Shown: piece after piece, positions 4,962 to 61,473 of the stretch
Layout of the letters: every line of letters starts with the position of its first letter
Numbering within the stretch: position 1 is the first letter of the stretch
DNA from: Escherichia phage vB_EcoM_VR20
DNA length: 64,000 bases
Sequence record: NC_028894.1
Strand: one strand, 5' to 3'
Position numbers and translations under genes: made by a program
Notes under the pieces: generated by a model
What the model saw: only the letters and a program-made list of their open reading frames with translations
Told to the model about the DNA's origin: nothing
Database searches by the model: none

Positions 4962-5627
4962 TTATTTTAAAGTGACAAAAGATGAGTTACGAGTTTCTCG
5001 TACTAGAACAGACCCATTACGATTAATGTAATAAATCAAACTGAATAGAGTTTGGTGCGCGGTGGGATGTGGGAAAGCAGTTGGACGTTCTTTCCAATCT
5101 GGAGTCTCGGCAATCCACTGATAAATCCACCATGGAACAGTACAGAATCCAGGGTTCTTACCAATAAGCATAAGATTTGGGCTAAAGTTTTTTGGCAGAG
5201 CAAATACAGGTTTTTCAGATTCGATAACCTTAGCAACAGCTGCTTCGAACTTTTCTTCGACAAACGGAACGTCCTCTTCGACCACAACAACTGGTTCTTC
5301 GATTTCAACAACTTCAACCTTTGCTTCGGTTGGAGCATCAAATAAGAGCTTAGCTTCTTCTTTAGCTGACTCATCGCCATCAAATTTAGCACCTGACAAT
5401 TCATCATCGGCATCGATAAGGTCAGTGATGCTCAAGCCTTCATTATCATCAGGCATAGGCATGTCAGCAAATGCTTTAAGTCCTGCTTCCAGGTCAGCCA
5501 ACATATTATCAAAGGTTTTTGTTTTCTTAACATCAACACCAAGTGATGCTGCATATTCGGCTAATTTTTCTTTGGCTTCTTTTTTCTCGAGGACACGAAT
5601 TTCCTCAATGTAGTTCTTGTCAATCAT
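4962..5627 (-). CDS. inh: Putative Inh, inhibitor of prohead protease
   Basis: 221 aa acidic protein between hoc and uvsW as in T4; ATG with GAGG Shine-Dalgarno. Confidence 0.55.
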   Translation of the reverse strand: MIDKNYIEEIRVLEKKEAKEKLAEYAASLGVDVKKTKTFDNMLADLEAGLKAFADMPMPDDNEGLSITDLIDADDELSGAKFDGDESAKEEAKLLFDAPTEAKVEVVEIEEPVVVVEEDVPFVEEKFEAAVAKVIESEKPVFALPKNFSPNLMLIGKNPGFCTVPWWIYQWIAETPDWKERPTAFPHPTAHQTLFSLIYYINRNGSVLVRETRNSSFVTLK

Positions 5628-57449: not shown

Positions 57450-57540
57450 TTTATTCTCCAAAGTTTTTGTGATTCAGTGTGTAACTCAGTATGGAATCAT
57501 TATGCATCAGGTCAAGGGAATTGTACACTACTTTTTAAAA
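57450..57540 (-). promoter_or_regulatory. Promoter cassette, near-duplicate of the one at 39723
   Basis: AAAAAGTAGTGTACAATTCCCTTGACCTGATGCATAATGATTCCATACTGAGTTACAC. Confidence 0.5.
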
Positions 57541-57541
57541 T

Positions 57542-57563
57542 AAAAAAGGACCCCGAAGGGTCC
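57542..57563 (-). terminator. UUCG hairpin terminator
   Basis: A-run then ggaccc-cgaa-gggtcc. Confidence 0.55.
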
Positions 57564-57661
57564 TAGTCTTTATCTATCTTATTGCCAATAAACATACCAA
57601 CAATCACACCCGCGATTGCCGCGAAAACACAAAGTAATGCAAACTCCACTCCAAAACTCAT
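57563..57661 (-). CDS. Hydrophobic micro-ORF, 32 aa
   Basis: MSFGVEFALLCVFAAIAGVIVGMFIGNKIDKD; ATG overlaps the gene 52 stop; below the track cutoff. Confidence 0.35.
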   Translation of the reverse strand: MSFGVEFALLCVFAAIAGVIVGMFIGNKIDKD

Positions 57662-59037
57662 AGAGCCTCCAAGTCATTAAGGTATTCAGTTTTAACATCA
57701 GTTGCCTTCCAGTACTCATGCTCAGCTTTCTTAGCCTTTGCTTCGTCTGCAAGCTTCTTGGCTTCGTCAGAGGTCATATGGTAGATGTTCATCGCCACTA
57801 ACTTCTCTGCATAATCGCCATATATTTCGCTTGCCTGGAGCTCCTCAATCAACTTCTTACGAGGTTTCCCCTGGATAACAACCTTACCGTCAATCACTTC
57901 TTTAATAAAGAAGACTTTCGCCCGGGCCAGTTTAAATGCTGCTTCAGTTTCTTTAATCTTACTGTCAATTCGCACTTGGACATAAGTCTTACGGACATCA
58001 ACGAAATCGCGAATCAAGTCAAGCGTGTTGGTGTATTCAGCCAGCTTGCCTTTGTGATTAAGCACTGTTAAGTTCTGGGAGAGTTTCTCAATCAGACCAA
58101 AGTCTTTCATGATTTTCTCATGATTCTCTTCTTCAGTGCCGTCCAGCTTGTATTCTTTACGGAATTTAATCTTAAACCCAAAACCATGCTCGCCGCAATT
58201 ATCTTTCCAGGTTATAAAACCTTTCTCTTCCAGCGGGTCCAGGATTTTACTTGTATACTTTTCCAGGTTCCATTGAACTGGAATTTCAGTAATTTCCATT
58301 TGAGTTCTGGAGGTCATTTTGTATGTGCCATGGAGCTCATACTTACCAGGCTCTTCCAGCTCAACAACTTCACCACGGAATTCTGGATATTTTACTTTCG
58401 GAGCAACCGGCTCACGACCTTCCACGATAGCTTTAACAGCTTCCTTGACGTCCTGGAACGAATGAGGAAGAATATCAGTAGCGAAGCCAACAGCAATCCC
58501 AGAAGTGGCGTTAAGTAATACAGTAGGAATAACAGGAAGATAAAAAGCAGGAGGCTTATGTTCTTCATCAGGATGGACCGGAGCATATTCTGTATCCTTA
58601 AACAAGTTGTAAAAGTTCTTTGAAACCCTTGCGAATACATAACGAGCTGATGATGCTTCTGGAACCATTCTGGAACCAAAGTTGCCCTGTCCATCAAACA
58701 TGGGGTATTCATTTTTATATGTTGCGACCAAACCGGATGTTGCTTCTTCAGCTGATGCTTCACCATGGTGATAACCATAATCAGCTACGCCACCTGCGAT
58801 GGATGCAACCTTATGGAATTTATTCTTATCGCCACGAGCCAGGTCTAATGCTCTCGCCATAACAAATCTGTGAACTGGTTTAAAACCATCAATCATGTTT
58901 GGGATGGCGCGACCTTCCACAGTGTAGATAGCATATGACAATGCTTCCACATCAATAATGTCTTTTAGACTACGTGGGTTAAGGGACCCCATGGAATCAC
59001 TGAACTGTTTGGACATCATACTTAAAACGTCAGACAT
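57658..59037 (-). CDS. 52: DNA topoisomerase II medium subunit gp52
   Basis: 459 aa (T4 442); GyrA-like; TAAGGTGA Shine-Dalgarno. Confidence 0.9.
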   Translation of the reverse strand: MSDVLSMMSKQFSDSMGSLNPRSLKDIIDVEALSYAIYTVEGRAIPNMIDGFKPVHRFVMARALDLARGDKNKFHKVASIAGGVADYGYHHGEASAEEATSGLVATYKNEYPMFDGQGNFGSRMVPEASSARYVFARVSKNFYNLFKDTEYAPVHPDEEHKPPAFYLPVIPTVLLNATSGIAVGFATDILPHSFQDVKEAVKAIVEGREPVAPKVKYPEFRGEVVELEEPGKYELHGTYKMTSRTQMEITEIPVQWNLEKYTSKILDPLEEKGFITWKDNCGEHGFGFKIKFRKEYKLDGTEEENHEKIMKDFGLIEKLSQNLTVLNHKGKLAEYTNTLDLIRDFVDVRKTYVQVRIDSKIKETEAAFKLARAKVFFIKEVIDGKVVIQGKPRKKLIEELQASEIYGDYAEKLVAMNIYHMTSDEAKKLADEAKAKKAEHEYWKATDVKTEYLNDLEAL

Positions 59038-59045
59038 ATATCACC

Positions 59046-59186
59046 TTACCAGATTAACGAATGTACTGCCATTATAGCATCAGAAATAAAAAGCACAACC
59101 TGCACTAATGCAAACATAACTCCATAATACAGCGCTACCAATAAGGTAGCAAGGGCTAATGAATAGCCCAAGATTTTCTTAATCAT
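59046..59186 (-). CDS. Small membrane protein, 46 aa
   Basis: MIKKILGYSLALATLLVALYYGVMFALVQVVLFISDAIMAVHSLIW; ATGA overlap with the upstream ORF. Confidence 0.4.
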   Translation of the reverse strand: MIKKILGYSLALATLLVALYYGVMFALVQVVLFISDAIMAVHSLIW

Positions 59187-59347
59187 TTATTAACCGCTGA
59201 TTCCAGAAATTTGACTAAGGCATCCAGTACAAACCATGTGCAAATAAATCCTGCAAAAAGAGTACTTGGGACCCATACACCTGTAGCAAAAAGAGTCACA
59301 GCAACGATAACAGCTACGAGCCAGATAAAAGTAAAAACTGTTTGCAT
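59183..59347 (-). CDS. Small membrane protein, 54 aa (possibly ac-like)
   Basis: Internal ATG with GAGGAAAATATG Shine-Dalgarno; two predicted transmembrane helices. Confidence 0.4.
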   Translation of the reverse strand: MQTVFTFIWLVAVIVAVTLFATGVWVPSTLFAGFICTWFVLDALVKFLESAVNK

Positions 59348-59436
59348 ATTTTCCTCAAGGGCGTCCAAAGACGCCAGTTAATTTCAGATTATGACGATGC
59401 CATTGCATCACATGTTCGTTATGGAAATTACTCATA

Positions 59437-59886
59437 TTAATAGCTCTGCAGAATGAATTTAAAGTTATCAGCAAGCATGCGATTCATTTCTGAAAGGGTC
59501 TGGCAATCAGAACTATGCGAGCGAGTGAACGCCATCGCAATTTGACCTTTACCATAACCAGTTGTCAGAGGTTTCATTTTAGAAACCGGGACAAACAGGA
59601 CTTCATAGATAACCCCATTGTTCGCCATTGTGCGAGACAGTTGTGAACGCTGTTTGCGGATGTGACTTAATACAGTGTCAAACCCTTGTTGTGAACGTTG
59701 GTTACCAACATAAAAACGTGCAGCAACAATACGTGATTCGCCTTCACCTTTGACCACGAAATAAAAACCTGGTTGGGTAATAGCTTCTTTAGTTGGACGA
59801 CCCGCCACATAATTACCATTATGGATGTAAGCAATAGTGGTAGCGCCAGCATTCAGTACGTCACGACGAGTCATGTAAGTAGTCAT
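59437..59886 (-). CDS. ndd: Nucleoid disruption protein Ndd
   Basis: 149 aa (T4 151); [21 protein letters not shown] and [13 protein letters not shown] match recalled T4 Ndd. Confidence 0.85.
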
Positions 59887-59960
59887 ATTAATTTCCTCAG
59901 TAAGTTAAAGTTTTGTGCTCCAGTGGGGTCATTATACTCTGACCCCAAGAGTTTGTACAC
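59887..59960 (-). promoter_or_regulatory. Early promoter with stem-loop upstream of ndd
   Basis: TTGTACA-17-TATAAT; stem ggggtca/tgacccc encloses the -10. Confidence 0.45.
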
Positions 59961-60304
59961 TATTTTTGAAGCTGTTCTAAAATAAATCCGCTGGTGTAAA
60001 GGCTTGCATTATACAGGCGGTCAAGAGACAATGAATCCAATCCATAAGCTTCACGAATTGCATTGATAGCACTTTCGTAACTTGTATAATAAACATCGCG
60101 ATAATCACGGTCCATAGTCATGCGGAACTTAATAAATTTATAGAAACCAGTTTCAGGGTCCTGATAGAATGCAAATTCTGCAGACATCAAATTTTTAAGG
60201 TGAACAACTTTTGTGCCACCCGAATAACTTAAATCAAAGGCTTCTGATACGCTAATTTGTTTAAAGAACATAATGTTGCGATTACCAAAAAAGACTTTAG
60301 ACAT
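59960..60304 (-). CDS. Hypothetical protein (ndd.x region)
   Basis: 114 aa; GAGGAAATCATT Shine-Dalgarno. Confidence 0.5.
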   Translation of the reverse strand: MSKVFFGNRNIMFFKQISVSEAFDLSYSGGTKVVHLKNLMSAEFAFYQDPETGFYKFIKFRMTMDRDYRDVYYTSYESAINAIREAYGLDSLSLDRLYNASLYTSGFILEQLQK

Positions 60305-60320
60305 AATGATTTCCTCAATT

Positions 60321-60566
60321 TTATTCAGGGTCTACCGAGCCATCCCACAAGTCAACTTCTTCTGATGATTCCATCAGTTCATCGACCGTGAAGCACTCAG
60401 TATTATTTTCAATTGCAAAGCGCTTGCGATACCAGGGGTAATCCAAACAGTTTTCAGTGCGCACTGGATGTTCATTTGAATCCATCAATGGACTAATGCG
60501 AATCAGTTGTTGTCCATTACTCAGGACAAATTTTTCACCAACTACAATGTCTTTAAAAAGTTTCAT
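60321..60566 (-). CDS. Hypothetical protein
   Basis: 81 aa; GGAGCTAAGCA Shine-Dalgarno. Confidence 0.5.
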   Translation of the reverse strand: MKLFKDIVVGEKFVLSNGQQLIRISPLMDSNEHPVRTENCLDYPWYRKRFAIENNTECFTVDELMESSEEVDLWDGSVDPE

Positions 60567-60769
60567 TGCTTAGCTCCATTCCAAATTACGTCAACAACAG
60601 ACTTCAGACCATTATCCTGGATTTGCGTGAACACTTCAGCAGCAATCCAGACCTGGAAACCAATCATTGCAATGGCACCAATGAAAATCAGGATAATCAT
60701 CGCCACAATAAACTTGAACATAAAGTCAAAGCGACGATTGGATTTCTGAAAGTTTGAACTATACCGCAT
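60563..60769 (-). CDS. Small membrane protein
   Basis: 68 aa with one strong transmembrane helix; TGAGGAAAATATT Shine-Dalgarno. Confidence 0.5.
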   Translation of the reverse strand: MRYSSNFQKSNRRFDFMFKFIVAMIILIFIGAIAMIGFQVWIAAEVFTQIQDNGLKSVVDVIWNGAKQ

Positions 60770-60787: not shown

Positions 60788-60934
60788 TTAAAGAACTTCT
60801 TCAATTTGGATGTATTTGCTATAACCTTCCTCGATGAGGATATCACGAGCGCAGTCAGCACTAATATAAGCATTAAAGCTAAGAGTTTTAATCACTTTAC
60901 CGTGCAGCTTTACTTTATAAATTCGGTTACCCAT
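60788..60934 (-). CDS. Hypothetical protein
   Basis: 48 aa from the internal ATG with GAGGAT Shine-Dalgarno. Confidence 0.4.
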   Translation of the reverse strand: MGNRIYKVKLHGKVIKTLSFNAYISADCARDILIEEGYSKYIQIEEVL

Positions 60935-60944
60935 AATATTATCC

Positions 60945-61061
60945 TCAAAAGAAATAGTTAAAGTAAACACGCACATGGTCAATCATAAAAACAATTGGGA
61001 AAATGCTCAGGACAACAAACAGTACAAACATGTTCCAAATGGCTTTAAGTAACTTTTTCAT
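60945..61061 (-). CDS. Hydrophobic micro-ORF, 38 aa
   Basis: MKKLLKAIWNMFVLFVVLSIFPIVFMIDHVRVYFNYFF; GGAGATGATT Shine-Dalgarno; promoter upstream. Confidence 0.35.
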   Translation of the reverse strand: MKKLLKAIWNMFVLFVVLSIFPIVFMIDHVRVYFNYFF

Positions 61062-61206
61062 AATCATCTCCAGTAGTTGATAGGTTCATTATACTACAAC
61101 CACCGGAGATGTACACTCTTTTATGTAAGTTTCATTAATAATAAACTAAAACAAACACAAATTACTGGGATACACAACATCCAGATAAGACACCACATTT
61201 TGCTGC

Positions 61207-61473
61207 TCAAAATATCACCTCCTTTATCTCAATCAATCCCCTGTACAATGCAGTGCGGAGGTCATAAAGAATATCTATGCCATCAACATTATCCAGCTTG
61301 CCATCAATAAGCTTTTCCAAATCTTCCTTTGATGCAACCAATGGGCGAAGAAATTTACAATCAGAAAGAGATAACTCTGTAGTAACATCATCACCATCAC
61401 CTGACGCATCATACATAACGGCAACAACCATACCTGTAACTTTGTGTTTGGCGTAGTATAATTTAATATCCAT
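61207..61473 (-). CDS. Hypothetical protein
   Basis: 88 aa from the internal ATG; preceded by a promoter/stem-loop cassette and GGAGAAAAA Shine-Dalgarno. Confidence 0.5.
   Translation of the reverse strand: MDIKLYYAKHKVTGMVVAVMYDASGDGDDVTTELSLSDCKFLRPLVASKEDLEKLIDGKLDNVDGIDILYDLRTALYRGLIEIKEVIF

Follow-up and report, generated by a model that had tools for sequence, protein, structure and literature searches.

Gene content of the cluster around gene 52

The small hydrophobic open reading frames (ORFs) on either side of the topoisomerase gene 52 of phage vB_EcoM_VR20 are, with strong support, genuine conserved protein-coding genes whose products are small, helical and hydrophobic. The cluster to which they belong very probably represents, in Gaprivervirus, the early accessory genes that T4 has between rIIB and motA. 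The sequence analysed here (the window) is a stretch of 64,000 nucleotides, and the coliphage it comes from is T4-like and falls in the VR7/VR25 group of Gaprivervirus. The nearest records to the window are those of VR7, VR25 and PSD2001, also Gaprivervirus, in which the micro-ORFs are annotated, and the T4 gene order (motA.1, 52, 52.1, ac, stp, ndd, ndd.1-6) is identical.

The original prediction placed three ORFs of 32, 46 and 54 aa, each with its own Shine-Dalgarno (SD) sequence or ATGA coupling, around gene 52 and a fourth of 38 aa at 60945..61061. All four are present on the minus strand, and their translation signals can be read directly from the sequence. However, the cluster is not limited to these four, as it also includes stp and two further hydrophobic ORFs of 68 and 29 aa. 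The features of the region are as follows.

57492..57538, minus strand: early promoter of the T4 type, TGTACA-N17-CATAAT, immediately following the terminator; repeat family D1
57547..57564, minus strand: intrinsic terminator, AGGACCCTTCGGGGTCCT then TTTTTTATTTT, with the stem beginning within the TAG stop of the 32-aa ORF
57563..57661, minus strand: 32-aa single-pass hydrophobic ORF MSFGVEFALLCVFAAIAGVIVGMFIGNKIDKD, last cistron of the early unit, in the motA.1 position
57658..59037, minus strand: gene 52, DNA topoisomerase II medium subunit, 459 aa
59046..59186, minus strand: gp52.1 orthologue, 46 aa; ATGA overlap (59186-59183) with the TGA of the 54-aa ORF
59183..59347, minus strand: predicted two-helix membrane hairpin protein, 54 aa, phrog_9347; ac position, different family
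59355..59435, minus strand: stp, 26 aa, not hydrophobic; starts 1 nt past the ndd stop
59360..59375, minus strand: hairpin GGCGTC-TTTG-GACGCC in the last stp codons, 2 nt before the SD of the 54-aa ORF
59437..59886, minus strand: ndd, encoding the nucleoid disruption protein; the early unit begins with this gene
59924..59970, minus strand: T4-type early promoter TGTACA-N17-TATAAT, predicted driver of ndd-stp-54aa-52.1-52-32aa
60563..60769, minus strand: 68-aa membrane protein, Pfam DUF7248 (PF23906), E 3e-25; phrog_2401
60945..61061, minus strand: 38-aa single-pass orthologue of Ndd.4, lysine-rich at the N-terminus; phrog_3098
61083..61122, minus strand: T4-type early promoter directly upstream of ndd.4; repeat families D8 and D15
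61121..61210, minus strand: 29-aa hydrophobic ORF with a TTG start, resembling T4 Ndd.6; phrog_8851, E 4e-15

The cluster was correctly recognised but is ordinary, consisting of T4-type early genes that are already known and annotated. All of its ORFs already carry annotation in GenBank relatives, and the 32-aa ORF or stp is left out of the annotation of several of these. Length cut-offs in gene callers lead to micro-genes being missed, and the value of the cluster lies mainly in annotation and experimental design.

Coding evidence and early transcription

The membrane-peptide character proposed for the 32-, 46-, 54- and 38-aa proteins is supported by their GRAVY values (1.3-1.7), by stretches of 17-39 residues without a charge, and by helices in the AlphaFold2 models of the 46- and 54-aa proteins. 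Of the 323 ATG-initiated ORFs between 25 and 70 aa long found in all six frames of the window, just 19 are as hydrophobic. Six of the 19 fall within 3.7 kb (57.5-61.2 kb; binomial P about 5e-4), and all six occupy gaps between genes. The frames are conserved in relatives, as the original prediction required. With dN/dS values of 0-0.36 overall and an excess of synonymous-only changes among the variable sites, the substitution patterns indicate that the micro-genes are under purifying selection.

That the micro-ORFs are untranslated chance open frames in AT-rich DNA is a highly improbable explanation. They are very short, and chance alone makes about 6% of the window's small ORFs just as hydrophobic, but they fit the inter-gene gaps exactly, with SD sites or ATGA coupling, are conserved across genera with synonymous change in excess, and match curated Pfam or PHROG families, whereas ORFs that overlap the micro-genes in other frames are unconserved among relatives. 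One such other-frame ORF of 46 aa, lying across the junction of gene 52 and the 32-aa ORF, was judged spurious, being truncated or altered in relatives. Searches of NCBIfam and PDB sequences with the micro-proteins gave nothing meaningful, and a search of the 55-63 kb segment against Rfam revealed no RNA family. A scan of IMG/VR with gp52 (100% identical in amino acid sequence to that of VR7 and 69% to that of T4) returned three loci only, and the annotated phage collection was used instead.

A 47-nt promoter repeat was among the signals identified, together with the early promoters and the terminator. It is strongly supported that ndd, stp, the 54-aa gene, 52.1, 52 and the 32-aa gene form one early unit between the early promoter upstream of ndd and the intrinsic terminator, and that ndd.4 and its neighbours are transcribed from a second early promoter (61122-61083). 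Translation from cistron to cistron through close spacing or ATGA overlaps is likewise strongly supported.

Orthologues of T4 52.1, stp and ndd genes

The original prediction had pointed to T4 ac, stp and 52.1 for comparison, and T4 proved to be the appropriate reference. By sequence, the 46-aa ORF is identified as gp52.1, though the 54-aa ORF is not a homologue of Ac (see below). The 46-aa protein matches Pfam DUF7396 (PF24129) over its full length (residues 1-46; E 1.8e-20, 73.2 bits against a cut-off of 27), and 40 of its 46 residues are identical in T4 gp52.1 (NP_049876), which is of the same length. The invariant motif YYGV.F...QVVLFISD is present, and dN/dS is 0-0.1. As in T4, the gene is directly upstream of gene 52 and overlaps the preceding small gene. 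It ends 8 nt before the gene 52 start, an arrangement common to T4 and 12 other loci. The differences from T4 are six substitutions and the length of the overlap with the upstream ORF (4 nt, against 8 nt in T4). The AlphaFold2 model is a single uninterrupted helix of 44 residues (residues 2-45; pLDDT 96).

Stp is the activator of the host PrrC anticodon nuclease. The stp gene, to which the prediction referred only by way of comparison, is present in the window itself and had been overlooked. Its product is a clear orthologue of T4 Stp (NP_049878) by both HMM and position, matching Pfam PF08133 (Nuclease_act; E 4e-15, 55.3 bits against a cut-off of 25) and sharing 20 of 26 residues with the T4 protein, so that six differ. 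Among eight phages, 11 variable sites in stp are synonymous and none is non-synonymous.

The 38-aa protein has the same sequence as Ndd.4 of VR7. It also clearly resembles T4 Ndd.4 (NP_049884; phrog_3098), of which it is, by HMM match and position, a clear orthologue without the four N-terminal residues of the T4 protein. It matches phrog_3098 over residues 1-37 (E 1.9e-23) and has an uncharged run at residues 11-27. The SD sequence GGAG (61071-61068) lies 6 nt upstream, and the start at 61061 is the better one because the alternative ATG at 61067 abuts the GGAG. The 68-aa protein is annotated as Ndd.3 in relatives, and its C-terminus resembles T4 Ndd.2a. The 29-aa ORF is TTGA-coupled to the upstream gene and is annotated in VR25.

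Exchangeable genes in the ac and motA.1 positions and their proposed role

The 54-aa ORF lies between stp and 52.1, where T4 has ac. It is preceded by the SD sequence GAGG (59356-59353), located 5 nt upstream of the ATG at 59347. A 61-aa form with a TTG start was rejected, as that start falls inside stp and the SD and all homologues fit ATG 59347. The protein belongs to phrog_9347 (E 1e-26) and is modelled by AlphaFold2 as a two-helix hairpin (helices 2-21 and 28-52; pLDDT 76). The gene was found in 51 phage records with the frame intact, and its dN/dS is 0.1-0.3. Its family is narrow, with three clusters in a set of 5.8 billion proteins and two representatives among 1.8 billion proteins. Homology to the 57-61-aa family found between ndd and stp was rejected (hhalign probability 0.5%).

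Like T4 Ac (NP_049877; phrog_2501), the 54-aa protein is about 50 aa long, is a predicted two-helix membrane hairpin, and is encoded in the early unit with an identical RBS context TGAGGAAAATATG. It is nevertheless unlikely that this phage has its ac gene in the 54-aa ORF, with a product that works in the manner of T4 Ac. The position, the similar size and the hairpin model speak for it, and the ORF is the top tblastn match of T4 Ac in the window, though with E 0.37. However, the proteins are assigned to different PHROGs (9347 and 2501), hhalign between the two families gives a probability of 0.6%, and the congeneric phages 212 and UPEC01 carry a true Ac-type gene in place of the 54-aa ORF. 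Moreover, JS98 and CIP9 hold an Ac-type gene beside a 53-aa member of the 54-aa family. Hence, the 54-aa type and Ac are not orthologues, and location between stp and 52.1 is not by itself diagnostic of Ac. Ac and the VR7 allele both finish in 'ND-stop', an ending imposed by an overlap of 8 nt with the start of 52.1 ATGATTAA. Identity with Ac was thus ruled out by PHROG assignment, hhalign and the co-occurrence of both families. The two proteins have no detectable sequence homology, and the acridine phenotype is established for T4 Ac only. As no Ac homologue was found in the window, the phage is predicted to be naturally resistant to acriflavine. In Gaprivervirus, the ac position is taken in some phages by a true Ac-type gene and in others by a hairpin protein of 54/55 aa that is unrelated to it. 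This constitutes a natural allelic series, and such phage pairs are ready-made material for testing the function of Ac-like proteins.

The start of the 32-aa ORF overlaps the gene 52 stop as ATGA (57661-57658), with GGAGG (57670-57666) 4 nt upstream. The ORF belongs to phrog_16377 (E 1e-8) and was found by tblastn with the frame intact in 80 phage records, in 25 of them at ≥90% identity. Its dN/dS is 0.04-0.36, and in five phages there are five synonymous-only variable sites against one that changes an amino acid. VR7 and VR26 have a third allele at this position (29 aa, phrog_28787) that is weakly similar (E 1e-3). No homology of the 32-aa ORF to T4 MotA.1 was detected: T4 MotA.1 (NP_049874; 49 aa) matches phrog_3487 only and gives no tblastn match at E<0.5. 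The two genes are nonetheless alike in that the start overlaps the gene 52 stop, the SD is supplied by conserved C-terminal codons of gp52, and the hydrophobic product is encoded by the last cistron ahead of a terminator and the next early promoter. A hydrophobic ORF overlapping the gene 52 stop and followed by a terminator occurs in 10 of 11 Tevenvirinae-type loci, and no such gene-52-coupled ORF was found in six more distant T4-like phages. The conservation of position and character but not of sequence is a small unexplained regularity of T4-like genomes.

The 32-aa ORF might act mainly in cis, so that translation to a stop inside the terminator stem modulates termination or 3'-end stability of the gene 52 mRNA and the peptide is unimportant. 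Consistent with this, the terminator follows the equivalent ORF by 0-6 nt also in VR7, JS98, VR5, T4, RCIP0032 and JS09, the stop overlapping the hairpin or lying within 6 nt of it in all of these and in the window, and the peptide sequence is poorly conserved between genera. However, a purely cis action does not require a membrane-like peptide, yet every version, from 23 to 59 aa, is hydrophobic. In addition, dN/dS is <1 within alleles, and in CIP9 and PWKp16 another hydrophobic ORF, also coupled, precedes any terminator. A mainly cis-acting role is improbable.

There is strong support for gene-precise exchange of the 32-aa and 54-aa genes, which pass between near-identical phages as cassettes whose junctions are conserved. 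Sequence identity drops to 50-70% exactly at these two ORFs while gp52 remains 99-100% identical; all combinations of their alleles were found, with breakpoints at the start codons. For the 32-aa gene, identity falls to 50% in comparison with VR7 and VR26, and the boundary is formed by the terminator (57564-57547) and the early promoter (57538-57492), which together are a junction of the PeSL kind. PeSLs are promoter/stem-loop cassettes of T4-like phages, for which shuffling of ndd.4/.5 has been described (PMC4122927). Like them, the 32-aa gene is variable among otherwise near-identical genomes and is bounded by a terminator followed by an early promoter, as defines a PeSL-bounded mobile cassette. 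Unlike a full PeSL, the 54-aa cassette has at one end the stp 3' hairpin (59360..59375), its conserved left junction, together with the RBS, and at the other the 52.1 start.

The likeliest role of the micro-proteins would be to alter the host envelope as non-essential early proteins of the inner membrane. The hydrophobic products, with one or two helices each, would enter the host inner membrane in the first minutes of infection and there bind or perturb envelope components. The genes may be individually dispensable and host-specific, which would account for a fast turnover of sequence alongside constant position, size and hydrophobicity. The closest precedent is T4 Ac, by which acridine accumulation is increased, a block of AcrAB-TolC being a preprint hypothesis (bioRxiv 10.1101/2025.06.30.662393). 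A second is the T4 sa-delta-9 deletion, which spans the whole region from 52.1 through denB; with it, burst size falls by half and phosphatidylglycerol synthesis is no longer stimulated (PMC6071114). Neither Ribo-seq nor gene-level fitness data for T4 52.1, motA.1 or ndd.4 were found in the literature.

A more specific joint reading, which is speculative and unlikely, is that the gene-52-coupled micro-protein would be a stoichiometric membrane partner of the topoisomerase subunit, tethering the T4-type topoisomerase II, and hence early replication, to the inner membrane. The nearby swappable two-helix cassettes (the Ac type, the 54-aa type and the 57-61-aa 'CFERLC' type) would then serve as host-specific alternatives for inhibiting machines of the inner membrane, for example efflux pumps or membrane-anchored defence effectors. 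The basis named for the tether is the presence of the coupled ORF in 10/11 Tevenvirinae-type loci with almost no sequence conservation.

Hydrophobic micro-genes in the gene 52 region

The minus strand carries every gene from 55 to 62.5 kb of the window. The 2.1 kb around the micro-ORF cluster matched 506 phage records, with the best matches (93–97% identity) to VR7/VR25/SP18-group phages of Escherichia and Shigella (genus Gaprivervirus, subfamily Tevenvirinae). The gene order is that of T4, annotated as motA, motA.1, 52, 52.1, ac, stp, ndd, ndd.1 to ndd.6, denB and rIIB. T4 and the closest relatives already have annotations for these micro-genes; therefore, the cluster is not new in kind.

Four hydrophobic ORFs, of 32, 46 and 54 aa around gene 52 (57658..59037) and of 38 aa further upstream, had been described as probable membrane peptides, the first three each with a Shine-Dalgarno (SD) sequence or ATGA coupling of its own. 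All four are present with such signals; stp and the 68-aa and 29-aa ORFs had been overlooked.

57563..57661, minus: 32-aa ORF; ATG overlaps the gene 52 TGA as ATGA (57661-57658), GGAGG upstream at 57670-57666
59046..59186, minus: 46-aa ORF; ATG overlaps the TGA of the 54-aa ORF as ATGA (59186-59183)
59183..59347, minus: 54-aa ORF; GAGG 5 bases upstream of the start
59355..59435, minus: stp, 26 aa, between ndd and the 54-aa ORF
60563..60769, minus: 68-aa hydrophobic ORF encoding a DUF7248 protein
60945..61061, minus: 38-aa ORF; GGAG 6 bases upstream of the start
61121..61210, minus: 29-aa hydrophobic ORF resembling T4 Ndd.6; TTG start, TTGA-coupled to the upstream gene

The start listed for the 38-aa ORF is the better one, because the alternative ATG at 61067 abuts the GGAG. 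The 32-, 46-, 54- and 38-aa proteins are all strongly hydrophobic (GRAVY 1.3–1.7, uncharged runs of 17–39 residues). With the corrections made here, their interpretation as probable membrane peptides is supported. Equally hydrophobic small frames arise by chance in ~6% of cases (19/323 in the window), and six of these 19 fall within 3.7 kb at the cluster (P about 5e-4), each filling an inter-gene gap. AlphaFold2 modelled the 46-aa protein as a single continuous helix (residues 2–45, pLDDT 96), which may span the membrane a single time or fold back, and the 54-aa protein as a hairpin of helices 2–21 and 28–52 (pLDDT 76).

Comparison with relatives indicates that the micro-ORFs are coding. The frames are kept, the 32-aa ORF being intact in 80 phage records and the 54-aa ORF in 51, and relatives break the overlapping frame across the junction of gene 52 and the 32-aa ORF. 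Nei-Gojobori comparisons gave dN/dS of 0–0.1 for 52.1, 0.1–0.3 for the 54-aa gene (a range that also covers the VR7 allele, 59% identical), and 0.04–0.36 for the 32-aa gene. Variable sites that were synonymous only and those in amino-acid-changing codons numbered, respectively, 5 and 1 in the 32-aa allele (5 phages), 14 and 3 in 52.1 (7 phages), and 11 and 0 in stp (8 phages).

Identities of the encoded proteins

The 46-aa protein matches Pfam DUF7396 (73 bits, cut-off 27), shares 40 of 46 residues with T4 gp52.1 and includes the invariant core YYGV.F...QVVLFISD; by sequence, it is gp52.1. The stp product matches PF08133 (55 bits, cut-off 25) and is identical to T4 Stp at 20 of 26 positions, and the 38-aa protein is Ndd.4 by its match to phrog_3098 (E 2e-23).

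Of T4 ac, stp and 52.1, which had been suggested for comparison, the last two were recovered, but the 54-aa ORF is not ac. Its product belongs to phrog_9347 and T4 Ac, the acridine sensitivity protein, to phrog_2501, and profile-profile comparison of the two families (six members each) gave a homology probability of 0.6%. In JS98 and CIP9, an Ac-type gene adjoins a 53-aa member of the 54-aa family; hence these are separate genes and not diverged orthologues. No Ac homologue was found in the window, and the congeneric phages 212 and UPEC01 have a true Ac-type 51-aa gene instead of the 54-aa gene between stp and 52.1. The C-terminal ND common to Ac and the VR7 allele was rejected as a sign of homology, because the 8-nt overlap with the start of 52.1, ATGATTAA, dictates these residues.

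The 32-aa ORF is like T4 motA.1 in position and ATGA overlap but differs in PHROG (phrog_16377 and phrog_3487, respectively). The 29-aa VR7 version (phrog_28787) is weakly similar to the 32-aa protein (E 1e-3).

Allele exchange at fixed positions

In comparison with phages whose gp52 is 99–100% identical to that of the window, nucleotide identity drops to 50% precisely over the 32-aa ORF (VR7, VR26) and to 48–72% precisely over the 54-aa ORF (VR7, VR25, 212, UPEC01). All combinations of alleles were found at the two positions.

Alleles after gene 52 and at the ac position
Window: 32 aa; allele A
VR25: 32 aa; allele B
VR7: 29 aa; allele B
VR26: 29 aa; allele A
212: 32 aa; Ac type

The 54-aa cassette is bounded by its own start codon, after the conserved stp hairpin and ribosome-binding site GGCGTCTTTGGACGCCCTTGAGGAAAATATG, and by the 52.1 start. 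The 32-aa cassette lies between the end of gene 52 and a terminator-plus-promoter junction of the PeSL (promoter/stem-loop cassette) kind; exchange of ndd.4/.5 between T4 and PST has been described as PeSL-mediated (PMC4122927).

Among 23 sequences (the window and 22 fetched loci), 10 of 11 Tevenvirinae-type loci have a hydrophobic 23–59-aa ORF with a start codon that overlaps the stop of gene 52; here the window, VR7, VR25, VR26, PSD2001, 212 and UPEC01 are counted jointly as one genus. The other carriers are T4, JS98, VR5, JS09, CIP9, PWKp16 and RCIP0032. In the locus comparison, this ORF was missing in Karamvirus KMB20 and absent from KVP40, Aeh1, avDM4, Cronuts, Makalu and ZZ1. Its SD comes from conserved gp52 C-terminal codons (D-L-E-E/A), and most such ORFs are followed by a terminator after 0–6 nt. 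It is modestly useful to know that this gene keeps its position and character, not its sequence.

In JS09 (L011, 4820..4900), this ORF is unannotated and encodes 26 hydrophobic aa, MSALALGFLSAIAALVIWLYWLDKHD; it starts with a TTG that overlaps the stop of gene 52 (TTGA), and a terminator begins at its own stop codon. CIP9 (L012, 5008..5085) and PWKp16 (L013, about 5040..5118) have a second hydrophobic micro-ORF of ~25 aa, MTFYGLFVGMIFFLWIIYLVIEYFF, ATGA-coupled to the ORF after gene 52.

A third family, of 57–61-aa two-helix proteins with a conserved ...CFERLCKMCG... motif, lies between ndd and stp in six phages; the window lacks this family, and no homology between it and the 54-aa family was detectable.

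UPEC01, L009: 2566..2739
JS98, L010: 2328..2501
CIP9, L012: 2899..3072
PWKp16, L013: 3013..3198
VR5, L014: 3771..3950
RCIP0032, L017: 3125..3298

In the GenBank record of UPEC01 (L009, 4436..4594, record-oriented locus), stp is given as 52 aa long, with a hydrophobic stretch added at the N-terminus. As this stretch is read from a different frame of the inserted 57-aa gene, the true stp start is probably the internal ATG.

A 48-aa soluble ORF, MGNRIYKVKLHGKVIKTLSFNAYISADCARDILIEEGYSKYIQIEEVL (60788..60934, minus), occurs in the window, PSD2001 and 212, whereas VR7, VR25 and UPEC01 lack it cleanly (0% identity bins). The 114-aa, 81-aa (Ndd.1) and 68-aa genes at 60000..60750 (minus) are near-identical in VR7 and VR25; in PSD2001 and 212, they have been replaced or have diverged strongly (identity 0–70%), which makes this another mosaic block.

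Early transcription and putative functions

A 47-nt T4-type early promoter motif, with an A-rich upstream element and GTGTACA-N16/17-TATAAT, has four minus-strand copies.

57538-57492, minus: early promoter, directly after the terminator ending the gene 52 unit
57564-57547, minus: strong intrinsic terminator, starting inside the 32-aa ORF stop codon
59970-59924, minus: early promoter
61122-61083, minus: early promoter, directly before ndd.4
61549-61503, minus: early promoter

These positions define one early unit of promoter, ndd (59437..59886), stp, 54-aa gene, 52.1, 52, 32-aa gene and terminator. The SD sequences of ndd.4 and the 32-aa ORF include GGAG, which is the cleavage motif of T4 RegB, and we infer that RegB may act there.

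The last stp codons (G-V-F-G-R) form a hairpin, GGCGTC-TTTG-GACGCC (59360..59375, minus), 2 nt ahead of the SD of the gene that follows; its T4 counterpart has a UUCG loop. Three independent stem substitutions (212, UPEC01, JS98) all keep pairing as G.U, which is weak evidence for a possible structural constraint (about 1 in 8 by chance).

Activities are known for just two members of the T4 cluster, Stp and Ac. Through its inhibition of EcoprrI, Stp activates PrrC (family annotation, established knowledge). T4 Ac makes infected or expressing cells acriflavine-sensitive, and a block of AcrAB-TolC by Ac has been proposed in a preprint (10.1101/2025.06.30.662393). When the sa-delta-9 deletion takes out 52.1 through denB, T4 stays viable with its burst size roughly halved, and infection no longer stimulates phosphatidylglycerol synthesis (PMC6071114). 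The hydrophobic micro-proteins of the window would be early, dispensable inner-membrane proteins that may modify host envelope functions in a host-specific manner, and fast allelic turnover at fixed positions fits this role. As the 54-aa gene is not ac, natural acriflavine resistance of VR20 is predicted, which is of modest use.
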